A DNA stretch of 64,000 nt. It comes from Escherichia phage UP19. The translations under genes and the position numbers were made by a program. The notes under the pieces were generated by a model. It was not told where the DNA came from, did not search any database, and was given only the letters and a program-made list of their open reading frames with translations. This document shows, in pieces, positions 39,368 to 44,625 of this stretch; the first letter of the stretch is position 1, and the number at the start of each line of letters is the position of its first letter. The stretch lies in the sequence record OX638288; one strand, given 5' to 3'.

Positions 39368-39642
39368 TATTCGTCGTCCTCGTCGTCTTCATCATCGTCA
39401 TCACCTTCATCCGCATCGTCAGATTCTTTTTTGTCTTTCTTATCTGCTTTATCGGATTTTTCGTCTTTATCTTCGTCTTCGTCATCTTCGTCGGCTTCTT
39501 CGCCTTCAATCATAACGGAGCGAGCAATTTCTGCTTTACGGGCTTCAATCAAAGCGGCTACTCGAGATTCGATAAGCGGGGCTGCTGCTTTACGAACTGC
39601 TACGAGGTCGTTTGATTTAATAGCTTCGATTAAATCTTCCAT
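39367..39642 (-). CDS. 67: prohead core protein gp67 with poly-acidic C-terminal tail
   Basis: 91 aa; position between genes 20 and 68; C-terminal 40 aa almost entirely Asp/Glu/Lys. Confidence 0.75.
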
Positions 39643-41216
39643 TAGAAATCCTCTTCTTCATCATCTGGGTTTTGGAAACGAGCCTCTTTAGACTCTTCTT
39701 CAATTTGCTTAGCTTCTTGATTAATTTCTTCGTCAGTCATCTGAAGGAAATCTTTCATAGCCGTTTGATGCGAAATATACTTACCAATAAATGGTTCAGC
39801 CATCGTTAGCATATTGATTCTGCGTTCCATGATTTCCGCATCTTTCATTTCACTGAAATAGCTATCACGGTTGAACGTAACTTTAATATTATTTATTTCT
39901 CTTTCCCACTCATCTTCTGTAATAATCTTTTTAAGAATGAGGTTTGTTTTTAATGGGTCTAAGAAAATTTCTTCAAATTTATTTTGGAGCTGTCGAATCC
40001 ATTTAGCAAATTTCAACTCATCACGAGTTATAGCCGTACCAGCATCAAACATAACACCGGAATTAGATTCACTAGGGATACGTGACTCCGGGATACGCAG
40101 CGCACGATAAAGTGCTGTGCGGAAATAAAGAACGTCATCCATATCACTCATACCTGTGGCACCAGGCATGGTATCAACTTCTGTTACCGCTTTACCGTCT
40201 CGACGTTGCAACCAATAGTCTTCAGTCATCGACATATTATGTTGCTGGTTTTTAATTTTACCGGTCGAAGCATCATATACCACACGGTTTTTCATCGTGT
40301 TCATGATATGTTGCATTTGTGCCGCAGCCTTACGAGAAGGCATATTTCCTGTATCGATATAAAATACACGACGGTCAGGAGCACGGGTAATACGATAGAT
40401 GACCATTGCATCTTCCATCAATTTAAGCTGGTTTGCAGGCTTAATAGCACGTTGCAAATAGCCAATGATGTTTTTACCACAGCAATCCAATAACCCAGAA
40501 TGTGCATAAACTACAGCAGCACGAGGAATTTTAACTTTAGTCCCAGCTGAATAAATGCGTCCATCAGCACAATAACTTTCATGACCAGTATCGTAAACGA
40601 AAAACTCGCGGTACCCATCTACAATTTTAACACCATCTTCCATACGTGTAACAATTTCACGAATGTATTGGACTTGGCGCGGGTCTAAGCGTCGAAGCTC
40701 TTGTACGCCATCTTTCATTTTTTTAGGGTTTATAATTTTATGAAAGAATATTCTCGAGTCTACATACCAACGTTGGAAATGGTCAGTGCCTTTACGTTGG
40801 AAATTTAAAAGATTCAAAACTTCACTAAATTCAGCCAAAATTTTATCTTTAATTGATTGACTGAACTCCGTCCCGTCTAAATTTAATGCAACTACTTCTT
40901 TATCATCCTCGTAGACAATAGCGTCAGACACAATTTCTTGAACTGCGTTATCGACTTCATAGTTGTTCATCAAATTACGGTAGGTATCAATGAGTTCCCT
41001 GGTGTTTTTAACTTCAGGCTCATTACTACCAAACATTTGTTGCATAAGAGCGTTATAAGGAATATTTTGCTCTTGGGTTTCAATTTCGCGAGCGCCATCA
41101 TCAAGCTTAGGTGCAGTGACAGACTCTAAATTGTTATTAATTTGTTGTTTATATTCTTTTTCGTCTTCATTAGCCCATGGCTTAAGAAAACTTAATATTG
41201 TATTAAAGTTTGCCAT
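39642..41216 (-). CDS. 20: portal vertex protein gp20
   Basis: 524 aa (T4 gp20 is 524 aa); gene order. Confidence 0.95.
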
Positions 41217-41264
41217 TAGAGTCTCCGATGAATGGGATAAGGAGCCGAAGCTCCTTTATAATTC

Positions 41265-41272
41265 TATTTATA
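41265..41272 (-). promoter_or_regulatory. late promoter TATAAATA (minus strand) for gene 20, followed by a 5'-UTR hairpin (41239-41256)
   Basis: Plus-strand TATTTATA directly after gene 19 stop; hairpin AAGGAGC-CGAA-GCTCCTT lies in the leader. Confidence 0.55.
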
Positions 41273-41273
41273 C

Positions 41274-41765
41274 TCATTCCCACCAATCGATAGCGAACGT
41301 AGATTCGAAAGTTTCTACCTCGTTGTTTGAATCCCAATCCATCTGGACTTCACCAACGTTAGTAGGCCATAAGCCATAAATTGTAACTTCTTTAGTCACA
41401 GTCTTACCGTCACGATGGAACTGACGAACAACTGCTTGTTTCTTATATTCTGCAGGTGCTGCACCTGTAATTTCATTGGTCATACCATGGCAGAGGTTTT
41501 GCCAATCGACAATTGCCTGACGGGTGTCATGGGCATCATCGTTGTAAATGGTAATGGTCCAATCATCAAACGTACGGTCGCCAGCTACGTTAATTTTACG
41601 GTTCATGTAGCCAACCGGTACTTTTTCTACAATGCCTGCCGGCATAGGTGCTGCTTTACATTTAAAGCTAAAGTTTTTACCAAGAAATGGAATTTCCACT
41701 TCGAAAAGGTTAGGGCGTGCAAAGTCACCTGACTCAAACGCACGAGTGATATCTGTCAACTCCAT
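41274..41765 (-). CDS. 19: tail tube protein gp19
   Basis: 163 aa from ATG 41765 with SD GAGG (T4 gp19 is 163 aa); ..DITRAFESGDFARPNLFEVEI.. Confidence 0.9.
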   Translation of the reverse strand: MELTDITRAFESGDFARPNLFEVEIPFLGKNFSFKCKAAPMPAGIVEKVPVGYMNRKINVAGDRTFDDWTITIYNDDAHDTRQAIVDWQNLCHGMTNEITGAAPAEYKKQAVVRQFHRDGKTVTKEVTIYGLWPTNVGEVQMDWDSNNEVETFESTFAIDWWE

Positions 41766-41783
41766 GGGAGGCCTCATAAGTCA

Positions 41784-41825
41784 GTTCCTGGCCACACCAG
41801 GAACGTTCTGATTAATTTATTTATA
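41784..41825 (-). promoter_or_regulatory. late promoter TATAAATA (minus strand, plus coordinates 41818-41825) followed by 5'-UTR hairpin GTTCCTGG-CCACA-CCAGGAAC (41784-41804) upstream of gene 19
   Basis: Exact octamer; perfect 8-bp stem directly downstream in transcript orientation. Confidence 0.55.
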
Positions 41826-41972
41826 ACAGTTGATAAATCATATTCCTGATAGTTAATCACTCCCAGGCGCAATTCTACGTGATATACGCTGTAACCAAAC
41901 ACATGGTATAATGGTTTTAGGTTCTTTATATTACAGCCTGGGATAATAGATTATACTAATAATATAATTTAT

Positions 41973-42614
41973 TTAGGATAGTAAGTCCCATAAGTCTATT
42001 GAACTAGACTTACTTTTAGCTCTATTAGATTCCCAAGTGATTATTTCTAAATTTGATAGTTGGGCTATCATTTCAGGAGGAAGATGATTATAAAATCCGT
42101 AAGCTATAGAAACCTTATGGTCTAATTGATACGCACCTTCAACTCCACATCGCCCTATTTTATCCGCATTTTCCCAAGTCATCCAAATCTTTTTAAGTTT
42201 AGGAGACCTAGTCAAAGCATGGACCCTTCCTGCATAAAGGTCGAATTCCTTTCTATTACCTTTCCATCTAGAATGCCCTTCTCCAATTTGCCAAGGCCTT
42301 GGCTTACCTGCTTGGGTTTTAGAATTGGTCTTATTAGCTTGTTTTCTAGAACACTCAAAACAGTGATGCTTATCGGCCCTATTTAAAAGTTGAAGACTTC
42401 TAGTAAATTTTAATCCGCACTCATCACAAGAAGCTTCTACCTCTTTATTAGAGTTTTTAGGGACCAAATGTATAGGAACCTCTATTACATCAGAATAATT
42501 TACAAGATATCCCAATATTTGACTCCATCTTTTGCAGTTGTTTCTTGGATATACTGTAACAAATTTAGAAATAATCACTTTAGAAATCCTTGCGCGTATT
42601 GTGTATACGCGCAT
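41973..42614 (-). CDS. HNH endonuclease with N-terminal Cys4 zinc-finger-like motif
   Basis: 213 aa; ..CDECGLKF..HHCFECS..; HNH core ..GAYQLDHKVSIAYGFYNHLPPEMIAQLSNLEIITWESNRAK.. Confidence 0.8.
   Translation of the reverse strand: MRVYTIRARISKVIISKFVTVYPRNNCKRWSQILGYLVNYSDVIEVPIHLVPKNSNKEVEASCDECGLKFTRSLQLLNRADKHHCFECSRKQANKTNSKTQAGKPRPWQIGEGHSRWKGNRKEFDLYAGRVHALTRSPKLKKIWMTWENADKIGRCGVEGAYQLDHKVSIAYGFYNHLPPEMIAQLSNLEIITWESNRAKSKSSSIDLWDLLS
41973..42614 (-). mobile_element. free-standing HNH homing endonuclease gene inserted between tail sheath (18) and tail tube (19) genes
   Basis: Same ORF as above; non-structural gene interrupting a conserved late operon, with a 195-nt structured spacer downstream. 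Confidence 0.65.
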
Positions 42615-42642
42615 TATATTATAAAGCTTAGAGCAAGTAAAC

Positions 42643-44625
42643 TTAAACTAAAGGTCCAATCAACTCGTCAAAATCCGCACCGGTGGATGTAGCCACGAAA
42701 TTTAAAGTTATGTAATTTATCGATCTCGCAGGTTTAACATAGATATTAGCAATAAACTCATTACGGTCGATAACCGCAGGGGTGTTCACTGTAGTATCAC
42801 AAACCACACGTCCTTCATAAATCCCACCAAGTGCCTTAATACCATCTAAGTACTGAGAAACTTCCATACGGAAGCTTGAACGAGTGAAGTTATCGTTCAA
42901 TTCAAACAGTTTATATTTAGAGGCATCACCGATATTTTTCTTAAGCATGTTGAACAGACGGCGAACGTTAATGTGGTCCATCGGAGATGGAACTTTAGTT
43001 GCAGTCTTATCACCAAACAATACGAAACCATCACCACCAGCAAAACCAACAACTGGGTTAATAGCTTCCTGGTACATGCGGTCGCGTTGTGCTTGACGCG
43101 GTTCAATTGCCAATTTCAGAACGTTAAGAATCTGACCACGGTTATAACCGGCAGGAGACATCCAAGGCTGAGACACATCATCAGTACGTGCACACAAACC
43201 AGCCAAATCGGCAGCCAGTGGTACCCAACGGTTTACGTCGTTATATTTGTCGTATTGATATTTATAGTTACCATCAATAGCGGCATAAGTGGTACTGATG
43301 TTCATGTTGTTGGCATCGAAATTACCGGCACCGGTACGCCAGTCAATAAGGTTATCTACTGCACGAGTCAGTGGAACGTTAACCAACAGACCTTTAGGAG
43401 GAGAAATAAATGCTAAGCAATCCTGTCGTTCATCAGCAATACTCACAACGTGTTTCTGAACAGTAGAAGCCACTTCATCGCCTTCACCGGCAACAGCACC
43501 AGCAATAAGCAGGTTAATATGGAGTGCTTCACGGTCGGCAAACAAATCCCAACCCTGCATCAAATCGCCTGCAGTAACTTTATCGTTGGCGGAAATACCA
43601 CCAGACAGATTAATGATACCACTAAATCCTTTTGGCCAGTTTAACGAGGTAGCATAGATGTAATTAGAAGTACCTTTAGCGAAATAATCATCAAGATAAA
43701 TGTTATTACCGTAAACGTCTTTTTCACCTTCTTTGGTGGAAAGTACGACTGATTCTACGATAGCACCATCGCGACGAACGATAATGGCATATTGGTCATC
43801 TGTTTGAGGTCCGTAATTAAATACTGCCTTGACAATAGAAGCACGGGTACCGCCACCAGGATAAACATCCAACATTTTAGAAGAACCAGCTTCATAAGCT
43901 GCTTTAGAAACGATTTCTACTTCCAGAGTAGAACCAATTTCACCAGGATAAAGGGCCACTACGCCTGGCATAGCAAATTTCTTAAGGGCCGCTTGGAATT
44001 CAAGAGAAGTAATAGCTTCTTCACTATTCTCAGCTTCAGTCAAAAGAATACCGGAATCGGTAACAATTCGGCCGACGGTAATAGTACCGGAAACACCCGA
44101 AGAGGCAGAAGTAACTTCAGCAGTCCAAGCCGGGCCTAGGGTAGGATACTGGTTTAAAGAACGCGCGTAAGCAATAATTTTTGCTGACGGAATAAACACA
44201 GAGAGAATTTTACCGTCTGTATCTACAGAAGTCACACGACCTTCAGATTCGACTACAGTTTGGTTATATTTAATATTAATTTTATCGCCTACAGCGTAGT
44301 TGGAACCAGCCGTAGTAATAGTGGTTTCGATATTACCAGCGACAGGAGATGCGTTTTTAGCAAATTCGCGACTAACAACACGAACTGTACGAAGGTCATT
44401 ACCATACTGGAGGAAGTTCATACCAGACATAAAGTAATCTGCTACTTCGTTATTAGGACCTCCAAACAAATCAACCAGTTCAACTTCATTGGTAATCTGA
44501 GTTACCTGGAAAGCAGGGCCCCACTGGAATTTACCAACCAGCGCTGCACGACCCGTTGCGTTACGAACGACAGTACTCTGTACGGACGTTTCTTTGAGCT
44601 CAATGCCCGGTGATAATAAAGCCAT
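42643..44625 (-). CDS. 18: tail sheath protein gp18
   Basis: 660 aa (T4 gp18 is 659 aa); gene order. Confidence 0.95.
   Translation of the reverse strand: MALLSPGIELKETSVQSTVVRNATGRAALVGKFQWGPAFQVTQITNEVELVDLFGGPNNEVADYFMSGMNFLQYGNDLRTVRVVSREFAKNASPVAGNIETTITTAGSNYAVGDKINIKYNQTVVESEGRVTSVDTDGKILSVFIPSAKIIAYARSLNQYPTLGPAWTAEVTSASSGVSGTITVGRIVTDSGILLTEAENSEEAITSLEFQAALKKFAMPGVVALYPGEIGSTLEVEIVSKAAYEAGSSKMLDVYPGGGTRASIVKAVFNYGPQTDDQYAIIVRRDGAIVESVVLSTKEGEKDVYGNNIYLDDYFAKGTSNYIYATSLNWPKGFSGIINLSGGISANDKVTAGDLMQGWDLFADREALHINLLIAGAVAGEGDEVASTVQKHVVSIADERQDCLAFISPPKGLLVNVPLTRAVDNLIDWRTGAGNFDANNMNISTTYAAIDGNYKYQYDKYNDVNRWVPLAADLAGLCARTDDVSQPWMSPAGYNRGQILNVLKLAIEPRQAQRDRMYQEAINPVVGFAGGDGFVLFGDKTATKVPSPMDHINVRRLFNMLKKNIGDASKYKLFELNDNFTRSSFRMEVSQYLDGIKALGGIYEGRVVCDTTVNTPAVIDRNEFIANIYVKPARSINYITLNFVATSTGADFDELIGPLV

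Follow-up and report, generated by a model that had tools for sequence, protein, structure and literature searches.

A probable cassette for a free-standing homing endonuclease of the T6 ORF19.1 family at the tail sheath-tail tube junction of a JS98-like Dhakavirus

HNH homing endonucleases occur both as free-standing and as intron-encoded enzymes, MobA-E of phage T4 and I-HmuI being examples. The mob genes are free-standing and lie between essential genes, their products place an HNH domain at the N-terminus and a DNA-binding domain at the C-terminus (PMC2988022), and MobA is predicted to start at a GTG codon. Seven free-standing endonuclease genes of T4, four of the five mob genes among them, are without a promoter of their own (PMC2988022). 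I-TevIII, from the nrdB intron of phage RB3, joins an HNH catalytic domain to a zinc-finger DNA-binding domain (PMC1865063). The PeSL cassettes of T4-type phages (Arbiol et al. 2010, PMC2839356) are units of a different kind, in which a strong sigma-70-like promoter and a stem-loop precede a variable open reading frame (ORF) with its SD sequence.

The closest described relative of the locus studied here is ORF19.1 of phage T6, which sits between genes 18 and 19 (g18 and g19), begins with a GTG after a hairpin and an SD, and lies next to a recoded gene 18 tail. The T6 record, which dates from 1994, already documents the ORF polymorphism of this locus, reportedly described by Repoila et al. (1994, EMBO J 13:4181). 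Petrov et al. counted one "other HNH" gene for T6, which they left unnamed, and the review of T4 mobile elements (PMC2988022) does not mention the locus. Our literature search for ORF19.1 or gp19.1 returned Candida gene names only, and no functional study of ORF19.1 was found in the literature searched.

Here we describe an ORF between genes 18 and 19 of Escherichia phage UP19, within a stretch of 64,000 nucleotides (OX638288) that we refer to as the window (Table 1). By sequence similarity the ORF belongs to the T6 ORF19.1 family (phrog_5104), and it shares with the T6 gene its position, the GTG start preceded by a hairpin and an SD, and the recoded gene 18 tail. We consider it probable that the ORF and its flanks, 692 bp in all, are a cassette for a free-standing homing endonuclease of this family, inserted just after the gene 18 stop codon. 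The anatomy of the cassette, its family membership and patchy distribution, the recoding beside it and the modelled fold of its product can all be read directly from the data.

The resemblance to the known systems is partial in each case. Like the T4 mob genes, the ORF is free-standing and intergenic between essential genes, it is predicted to start at GTG as mobA is, and the D-H...N...N chemistry of MobA-E and I-HmuI is predicted for its product too. However, the domain order is reversed with respect to the Mob proteins, and neither HNH_3 (the Mob-type profile) nor any other Pfam HNH profile matched the protein, so the product is not of the Mob type. Unlike the seven promoterless T4 genes, the ORF appears to carry its own promoter. 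I-TevIII likewise combines an HNH-type domain with a zinc finger; in contrast to the ORF product, it is intron-encoded, dimeric, and has an N-terminal HNH domain followed by two C-terminal Cx2C...Hx3C fingers, and we detected no sequence similarity between the two proteins. By analogy, the element may work in the manner of the free-standing Mob and Seg endonucleases of T4.

Table 1. Positions of the features of the locus within the window.
Feature	Position	Strand	Basis or remark
Gene 19, tail tube, 163 aa	41274..41765	-	Pfam Phage_T4_gp19, phrog_45, JS98 annotation
Native g18-g19 intergenic spacer, 185 nt in JS98	41766..41950	-	Nearly identical in JS98, L091, L093 and L094, which have no homing endonuclease gene
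Perfect 8-bp hairpin GTTCCTGG/CCAGGAAC	41784..41804	-	Predicted 5' leader of gene 19 late mRNA
Gene 19 late promoter box TATAAATA	41818..41825	-	Invariant in 8 Dhakavirus sequences
Long imperfect stem closed by CCCAGGC/GCCTGGG	41862..41942	-	Minimum-energy and consensus folds
Conserved motif CATTATACCATG in hairpin enclosed by long stem	41904-41915	-	
Relic of original gene 18 end (Leu-Val-stop), TTAGTATAA	41951..41959	-	9 nt, downstream of insert; JS98 alignment
Homing endonuclease gene proper (predicted), 201 aa + stop	41973..42578	-	GTG start 42578-42576; phrog_5104; PSD9 CDS
C-terminal HNH-like (beta-beta-alpha-Me) domain, residues 96-201	41976..42293	-	
Putative catalytic residues D153, H154, N176, N185	42024-42122	-	
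Mosaic middle of the ORF gene	42190..42560	-	32-65% nt identity to PSD9/QL01 allele at same site
Zinc ribbon Cx2C-x18-Cx2C (C51, C54, C73, C76)	42351..42428	-	Four Cys invariant in 34 sequences
Leader hairpin GCGCGTAT-ACACA-ATACGCGC	42592..42612	-	Between -10 box and SD
Early-type sigma-70-like promoter, GTTTACT-17 nt-TATAAT	42613..42642	-	Consensus match; function inferred
Promoter boxes	-35 at 42641-42636, -10 at 42618-42613	-	
Gene 18, tail sheath, 660 aa	42643..44625	-	Pfam Gp18_dom_I, Phage_sheath_1, sheath_1C and others; upstream of insertion
Recoded 3' tail of gene 18	42646..42729	-	18 of last 29 codons, 20/87 nt vs JS98
Diagnostic core of recoding, codons R-S-I-N-Y-I-T-L-N-F-V	42694-42726	-	33 nt

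The sheath-tube junction and its native spacer

The window is from a JS98-like Dhakavirus. Its g17-g20 region is 97.9% identical to that of Escherichia phage JS98 (Dhakavirus, Straboviridae), all genes of this region are on the minus strand, and Pfam searches confirmed the portal gp20 (39642-41216), the tail tube gp19, the tail sheath gp18 with five sheath domains, and the terminase gp17. Gene 18 shares 97% nucleotide identity with its JS98 counterpart. The original prediction had taken genes 18 and 19 to be adjacent in T4 and had placed a 213-aa ORF between them here, and both points hold: only a 116-nt gap separates the two genes in T4, and the ORF is found at 41973-42614 (-), with 213 aa if counted from its ATG. 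The distance to gene 19 had been given as a spacer of 195 nt. This has to be corrected to 207 nt, because gp19 starts at ATG 41765, as it does in JS98, with its SD GAGG at 41772-41775; the in-frame ATG upstream of it, at 41777, reads AAG in relatives.

Alignment with the empty site of JS98 delimits an insert of 692 bp that runs from directly after the g18 stop codon to 13 nt past the ORF stop codon. The original end of gene 18 survives as a relic on the far side of the insert, and its counterpart TTAGTTTAA (42643-42651) now terminates gene 18.

We found the empty junction, consisting of the spacer only, in JS98, in about 40 other Dhakavirus records and in T4. Carriers of the family at the g18-g19 junction comprise PSD9, QL01, UGJNEcP3/4, T6, VR7 and many Tequatroviruses, and the order g18-ORF-g19 is common to T6, VR7, PSD9, QL01 and two metagenome contigs (L004 and L005). 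Seven inserts were present among 79 g19 loci from IMG/VR, and all seven were from the ORF19.1 family. Conversely, at least 32 of 80 IMG/VR relatives lie at the g18-g19 junction, including some from phages whose gp18 and gp19 are only 33-50% and 26-40% identical, respectively. Presence or absence at one site in close relatives, combined with family members across lineages, is the pattern by which a free-standing homing endonuclease gene is recognised. The comparison of related junctions, which the original prediction had proposed as its own check, thus shows an ORF that is patchy at the same junction across genera and missing from JS98 and T4. A conserved structural accessory gene, the case named as counting against an endonuclease, would not be distributed in this way.

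The spacer between the ORF and gene 19 had been linked with the endonuclease as a structured element. It is true that the spacer RNA folds better than 200 of 200 shuffled sequences (z = -3.8), but this is a native Dhakavirus region and not an inserted one. Because the Dhakaviruses with an empty site have the same 185 nt, the spacer lies outside the mobile element, and the idea that it forms part of the insert was ruled out by JS98, which has the spacer without the ORF. Across T4-like phages, this intergenic region can be as short as about 15 nt and as long as 204 nt. A search of 41600-42800 against Rfam returned no match, and we found no sign of an intron.

Two elements predicted for the spacer were recovered as described. 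One is the late promoter of gene 19, whose box TATAAATA was found at 41818-41825 (-); the late box acts as a promoter in T4. The other is the perfect 8-bp hairpin, present at exactly the positions given for it. Flanked by the late promoter and the SD, it is some 7 nt away from the predicted 5' end of the late g19 mRNA, and in eight Dhakaviruses its stem is invariant and its loop variable. In VR7/L102 and in L120 this position is taken by unrelated hairpins. The hairpin would likely serve as a 5' stabiliser or as a barrier to upstream transcription.

A third element, a 7-bp inverted repeat, is also present, at 41862-41868 and 41936-41942 (+ strand), with its first arm 5 nt away from the position "around 41857" that had been reported. 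An inverted repeat of 7 bp in about 200 nt is roughly at chance level, and it is conservation and the minimum-energy fold that speak for this one. The motif CATTATACCATG, which lies inside the long stem closed by the repeat, is common to the spacers of VR7/L102 and L117. Across the eight Dhakavirus spacers we counted five one-sided, wobble-compatible changes in the stems and no compensatory pairs, and variation was concentrated in the loops. An RNA structure in the spacer is therefore best described as plausible but unproven. We rejected a 42-aa reading frame within the spacer (41774-41902), as the variation among relatives would alter its peptide and it has no SD, and also the motif ACCATTATACCATG as a repeated regulatory signal, for which the window contains one near-match (6813), inside a coding region.

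The cassette and its product

The predicted promoter of the cassette is the top promoter-like site of the region, with 10 of 12 matches and an exact match to GTTTAC-N18-TATAAT. It is kept in PSD9/QL01 and in VR7, and the VR7 leader has the same layout, the stem being identical and the loop different. At the corresponding place T6 has a GGGGC-TTCG-GCCCC hairpin, and no obvious promoter. Both the promoter and the early timing of expression are suggested by these consensus matches. Because the predicted start point of this promoter falls within the 5' arm of the leader hairpin, the complete hairpin could form only in RNA that reads through from g18, and early and late transcripts may accordingly be handled separately. 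The combination of a strong sigma-70-like promoter, stem-loop, SD and variable ORF resembles that of the PeSL cassettes, with some differences: there is a single unit here, it lies in a conserved structural module rather than in a hyperplastic region, its stem is GCGCGTAT rather than G/C tracts, and there is no second flanking copy able to form a mini-circle. Indeed, we found no second direct PeSL copy downstream of the ORF, where the spacer hairpin has a TATAAT on the opposite strand only.

The ORF most likely starts at GTG 42578, giving a protein of 201 aa, 12 codons past ATG 42614, which is probably unused. An SD, AAGGA, is located at 42590-42586, 7 nt upstream of this GTG. The annotation of PSD9 places the start at the same codon, and the 1994 T6 record also has a GTG start ("likely begin by GTG"). 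Moreover, the PHROG and tblastn alignments start at residues 11-13, and the homologues begin at MIISKF, whereas the upstream peptide extensions proposed by gene callers differ completely between lineages. The original prediction was right that no SD precedes the ATG, because this codon (42614-42612) overlaps the -10 box of the promoter; what it missed is the likely start downstream, which does have an SD.

The match to phrog_5104 (E = 3.7e-72) covers residues 13-212. The ORF protein has 39 homologues at E <= 1e-3, the best of them 91% identical, and tblastn retrieved 239 phage records, nearly all ORF19.1 records being labelled hypothetical. Amino acid identity to the Tequatrovirus and Gaprivervirus copies is 64-67%. 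This allele was absent from the 50,697 phage records searched, where the best match reached 67% at the amino acid level, and its nearest relatives are the metagenome contigs L004 and L005 (91%), in which the gene is intact and at the same site. The ORF of the window is intact as well, with all 20 invariant family residues present, and the window contains no second copy of the family.

The N-terminal half of the protein (residues 1-95), which holds the zinc ribbon, presumably binds DNA. The zinc module had been described as CxxC...HxxC; the actual module is CxxC-x18-CxxC, formed by C51, C54, C73 and C76. Weak matches to DUF4379 treble-clef and Zn_ribbon_8 profiles were seen among family members, along with a weak match to the zinc ribbon of mS66.

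This half of the protein is also where the allele departs from that of its relatives. Identity to PSD9/QL01 is 85-97% from g18 through the first codons of the ORF and 87-100% over the last 215 nt, while the intervening 370-nt stretch, which encodes most of the N-terminal half, is divergent, and no phage record exceeded 65% nucleotide identity over it. The allele thus consists of a T6/VR7-like N-terminal half and a leader and C-terminus of the Dhakavirus PSD9 type. As judged from these comparisons, alleles at the same site seem to have the leader and the catalytic domain in common and to differ in the presumed DNA-binding half.

We next considered whether the C-terminal half is an HNH nuclease. 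We used two alignments, A1 with 34 sequences and A2 with 41 C-domains (36% mean column identity). Across the 41 C-domains only Y115, Y150, D153, H154, N176 and N185 are invariant, and D153, H154, N176 and N185 are invariant in both A1 and A2, at the expected secondary-structure positions. We take this D-H...N...N arrangement to be comparable to D74/H75/N96 of I-HmuI. The AlphaFold models were confident (pLDDT 89 for the whole protein; pLDDT 88 and pTM 0.77 for the C-domain). In the modelled C-domain the D-H pair ends a strand, N176 precedes the next strand and N185 falls in the following helix, giving a beta-beta-alpha arrangement, and this beta-hairpin plus helix resembles solved HNH domains.

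Profile searches gave a different picture. No curated HNH profile (HNH, HNH_2-5) passed threshold in Pfam/NCBIfam searches of the protein, and Pfam searches of 34 family members and 20 distant relatives found no HNH above threshold, the best being HNH_4 in one of the 34 (E = 0.078). PDB searches with phmmer, with the 34-member profile and with the C-domain profile returned no HNH chain; the matches were to eukaryotic C2H2 fingers, a trypanosome mitoribosomal zinc-ribbon protein and spurious leucine-rich repeats. Foldseek with the full model against the PDB found nothing at E <= 0.001. The HNH assignment is therefore based on the motif and the modelled fold: these two speak for membership in the HNH superfamily, the curated sequence profiles do not, and an HNH-like nuclease is the best reading of the C-domain. 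The C-domain has 3,692 cluster representatives (50% identity clusters) at E <= 1e-3, and elsewhere it is fused to treble-clef/CapR-like zinc fingers, to DUF7487 or to multi-HTH N-termini. Modularity of this sort is typical of phage homing endonucleases. The endonuclease reading of the original prediction is thus supported by motif, modelled fold, patchy distribution and recoding, cleavage itself being predicted.

Silent recoding beside the insert

If the cassette is a homing endonuclease gene, the DNA that it abuts should show traces of its spread. The window and JS98 are 100% identical over g18 nt 1651-1860 (210 bases). In the last 29 g18 codons, by contrast, there are 18 synonymous and no non-synonymous changes, compared with 34 of 631 codons that differ in the rest of the gene (Fisher p = 1.2e-14 versus the tail). 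Two of the recoded codons are double changes (AGA/CGT and TCC/AGC). The same tract is recoded from the same Arg codon in three further carrier/empty pairs, drawn from other genera, when QL01 is compared with L091, VR7 with L102, and T6 with T4. Over the 33 nt that encode RSINYITLNFV in these four lineages, carriers differ from each other at a mean of 6.8 positions versus 11.2 between carriers and empty alleles. All seven carriers spell the Ile as ATA, where every empty allele has ATT or ATC; for the adjacent Asn, six of the seven carriers use AAT, and the empty alleles without exception AAC. When we searched IMG/VR for the recoded motif as a pattern, seven contigs were found, six of them with the family gene between g18 and g19; contigs with both motif and gene included phages whose gp19 is only 35% identical.

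Not every recoded tail is accompanied by this gene. L107 has a recoded g18 tail without the gene, and L103 has a recoded tail and, as its only family member, one from a second and distant branch (about 30% identity) that is inserted immediately before the g19 ATG. From their arrangement, L107 and L103 look like later stages of a homing cycle. Members of the g19-side branch stand in place of the native late promoter and hairpin. They offer a natural control: in four carrier/empty pairs g19 codons 2-12 are densely and silently recoded, with g18 untouched. In the window, the 5' end of gene 19 is not recoded. Silent recoding on whichever side the insert abuts is what target-site immunity plus co-conversion would predict, and it would be hard to obtain from random divergence of the donor. 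We infer that the recoded gene 18 tail is a co-conversion and cleavage-immunity tract.

Cleavage, its target site, the timing of expression and homing itself are predicted from these patterns, and the sequence of events would be as follows. If a gene-free relative such as JS98 infected the same cell, the enzyme would be produced early. It would recognise the RSINYITLNFV-coding sequence near the 3' end of gene 18 in the empty allele and nick or cut it, and T4-type recombination-dependent repair would then copy the cassette, together with the adjacent gene 18 tail, from the carrier genome. The gene 18 tail of the carrier would be spared, because it encodes the same amino acids by different codons. 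Expression of the tail tube is probably unaffected by the insertion, because the native spacer still supplies gene 19 with a late promoter and leader hairpin of its own. It should be noted that recoding and co-transfer could in principle also arise, without any nuclease, from ordinary recombination with a diverged donor.

Alternative readings and significance

This caveat leads to a reading in which the ORF is a passive cargo gene, perhaps a zinc-finger regulator that binds DNA or RNA, moved by PeSL-type shuffling or homologous exchange with the gene 18 tail hitch-hiking. The leader is indeed a promoter-plus-stem-loop unit of the PeSL kind, the insert is flanked by 9 nt duplicated from the end of gene 18, the mosaic gene combines conserved ends with an exchanged middle, and no curated nuclease profile matches. 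However, there is a single PeSL-like unit and no flanking direct pair. Moreover, the recoding is purely synonymous and begins at the same first codon in four lineages, as expected of target-site immunity and not of random divergence, and it shifts to gene 19 for the branch that is inserted beside gene 19. Given in addition that the D-H...N...N tetrad is invariant and that the neighbours are HNH folds, we regard passive cargo as quite unlikely. An inactive relic, an enzyme that once homed, is no longer active and persists since deletion is rare, would fit the mosaic and recombinant alleles, the GTG start codon and the lineages that have a recoded tail without the gene, which suggest cycles of loss. 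Yet the reading frame is complete with 20 of 20 invariant family residues, the closest relatives (91% aa) are likewise intact, and the promoter, SD and hairpin are conserved, which makes a relic highly improbable.

A domesticated or dual-use nuclease, kept for the benefit of the phage with its own mobility secondary, is harder to set apart from homing, and we consider it unlikely. Such an enzyme might act in marker exclusion, by cutting the essential tail sheath gene in relatives that compete with the phage, or, less likely, aid DNA processing near the packaging genes. The association with the junction is long-lived, being found in at least 32 of 80 IMG/VR relatives even where gp18 and gp19 are distant, the ORF is intact, and T4 reviews report that homing nucleases contribute to the exclusion of T2 by T4. 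Against this, the gene is missing in about 40 of 45 full-length Dhakavirus matches; being absent from most close relatives, it is not needed by the phage. Nothing ties the gene to packaging, and exclusion and homing are the same cleavage event, so that exclusion would be an added consequence more than an alternative.

The homing endonuclease reading makes the ORF a selfish mobile nuclease gene of a little-studied family, an ordinary phage parasite whose spread has left unusually clear comparative traces. It is conceivable, and we propose it tentatively, that ORF19.1 represents a previously undefined homing endonuclease family of the sheath-tube junction with two opposed branches and swapped DNA-binding halves. 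The family seems to be dedicated to this junction across the whole T4-like superfamily. Its two branches may attack the same intergenic region, one at the 3' end of gene 18 and the other at the 5' end of gene 19, and alleles at the same site appear to exchange their DNA-binding halves by recombination while retaining the leader and catalytic domain. To the new mosaic allele the comparisons add two branches on either side of one intergenic region, the diagnostic immunity codons and a domain family outside Pfam.

For the window itself, the practical outcome is a corrected annotation. More broadly, the locus points to a large nuclease-domain family outside the curated annotation libraries; because these libraries miss it, hundreds of phage records say hypothetical or extend the gene from a wrong upstream ATG. 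Phages UP19 and JS98 form a natural pair of carrier and empty genomes, 100% identical up to the predicted target, with a 33-nt candidate recognition sequence in the essential and highly conserved gene 18. Free-standing homing endonucleases, few of which have been tested, shape mosaicism and exclusion among T4-like phages, therapeutic ones included.

Motifs and hairpins of the g18-g19 spacer

We found the motif CATTATAC(C/A)(A/G)TG within a hairpin 35-45 nt past the stop codon of g18, the tail sheath gene, in three lineages; apart from this motif, their spacers cannot be aligned with one another. The stems around this motif are not alike from lineage to lineage. On the antisense strand, its reverse complement gives a perfect TATAAT with a (T/C)GCTnnA box 12-13 nt upstream, an arrangement similar to that of T4 middle promoters. 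Judging from sequence, the motif may be an antisense promoter inside a stem-loop. A separate observation is that CCWGG (CCTGG or CCAGG) occurs within the stems of many g18-g19 intergenic hairpins, across different genera.

Positions of the described features in the window, at comparison loci (L numbers) or in family proteins (P numbers)
Feature	Window	Elsewhere	Remarks
CATTATAC(C/A)(A/G)TG motif	41904-41915	L007 2322; L102 1841; L117 1850	
TATAAT	41908-41913		+ strand; reverse complement of the motif
g18 end, two copies flanking insert	41951-41959; 42643-42651		TTAGTTTAA / TTAGTATAA
CCWGG-stem hairpins	41784-41804; 41862-41868 / 41936-41942	spacers of T4, L095, L097, L105	
g19-side family element		L090 1132-2001; L096, L103, L111	IMG/VR contigs
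Upstream-extended starts	42612-42614	P0004, P0005, P0011, P0012, P0014, P0017, P0028, P0030	

Start codons of the family

In several databases, automatic annotation places the start of T6 ORF19.1 family members 10-16 residues upstream of the conserved MIISK start. Because these extra N-terminal residues are translated promoter/hairpin leader, the extensions are probably a systematic mis-annotation.

Genes at g19 and neighbouring junctions

A distant branch of the family (220-227 aa, about 30% identity) is inserted directly upstream of the start codon of g19, the tail tube gene. There the element takes the place of the native g19 late promoter and hairpin, supplies its own TATAAATA and ends 0-3 nt before the g19 ATG, and g19 codons 2-12 are silently recoded. 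At the g19-g20 junction (L003 575-1156), QL01 (NC_028847.1) has a further gene with the annotation HNH endonuclease; the same junction of the window consists only of a 57-nt gap (41217-41273). Two environmental contigs (L032 2890-3477, L046 2914-3135) have a family member in the g18-g19 interval, but on the strand opposite to both genes.

Insertion and possible loss of the g18-side gene

The insert in the window is flanked by two copies of the final two codons and stop of g18, and in QL01 the downstream relic of this end has decayed. This duplication and decay hint that the element first arrived by an ectopic event of the microhomology type and not by clean homing. The carrier-type recoded g18 tail is also found where the g18-side gene is missing, namely in L107/L173 (IMGVR_UViG_2706796116), whose g18-g19 gap is an empty 118 nt, and in L103/L172 (IMGVR_UViG_2706795394), where only a g19-side element accompanies the recoded tail. 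From these sequences, both look like cases in which the endonuclease gene was lost and the resistant target kept.
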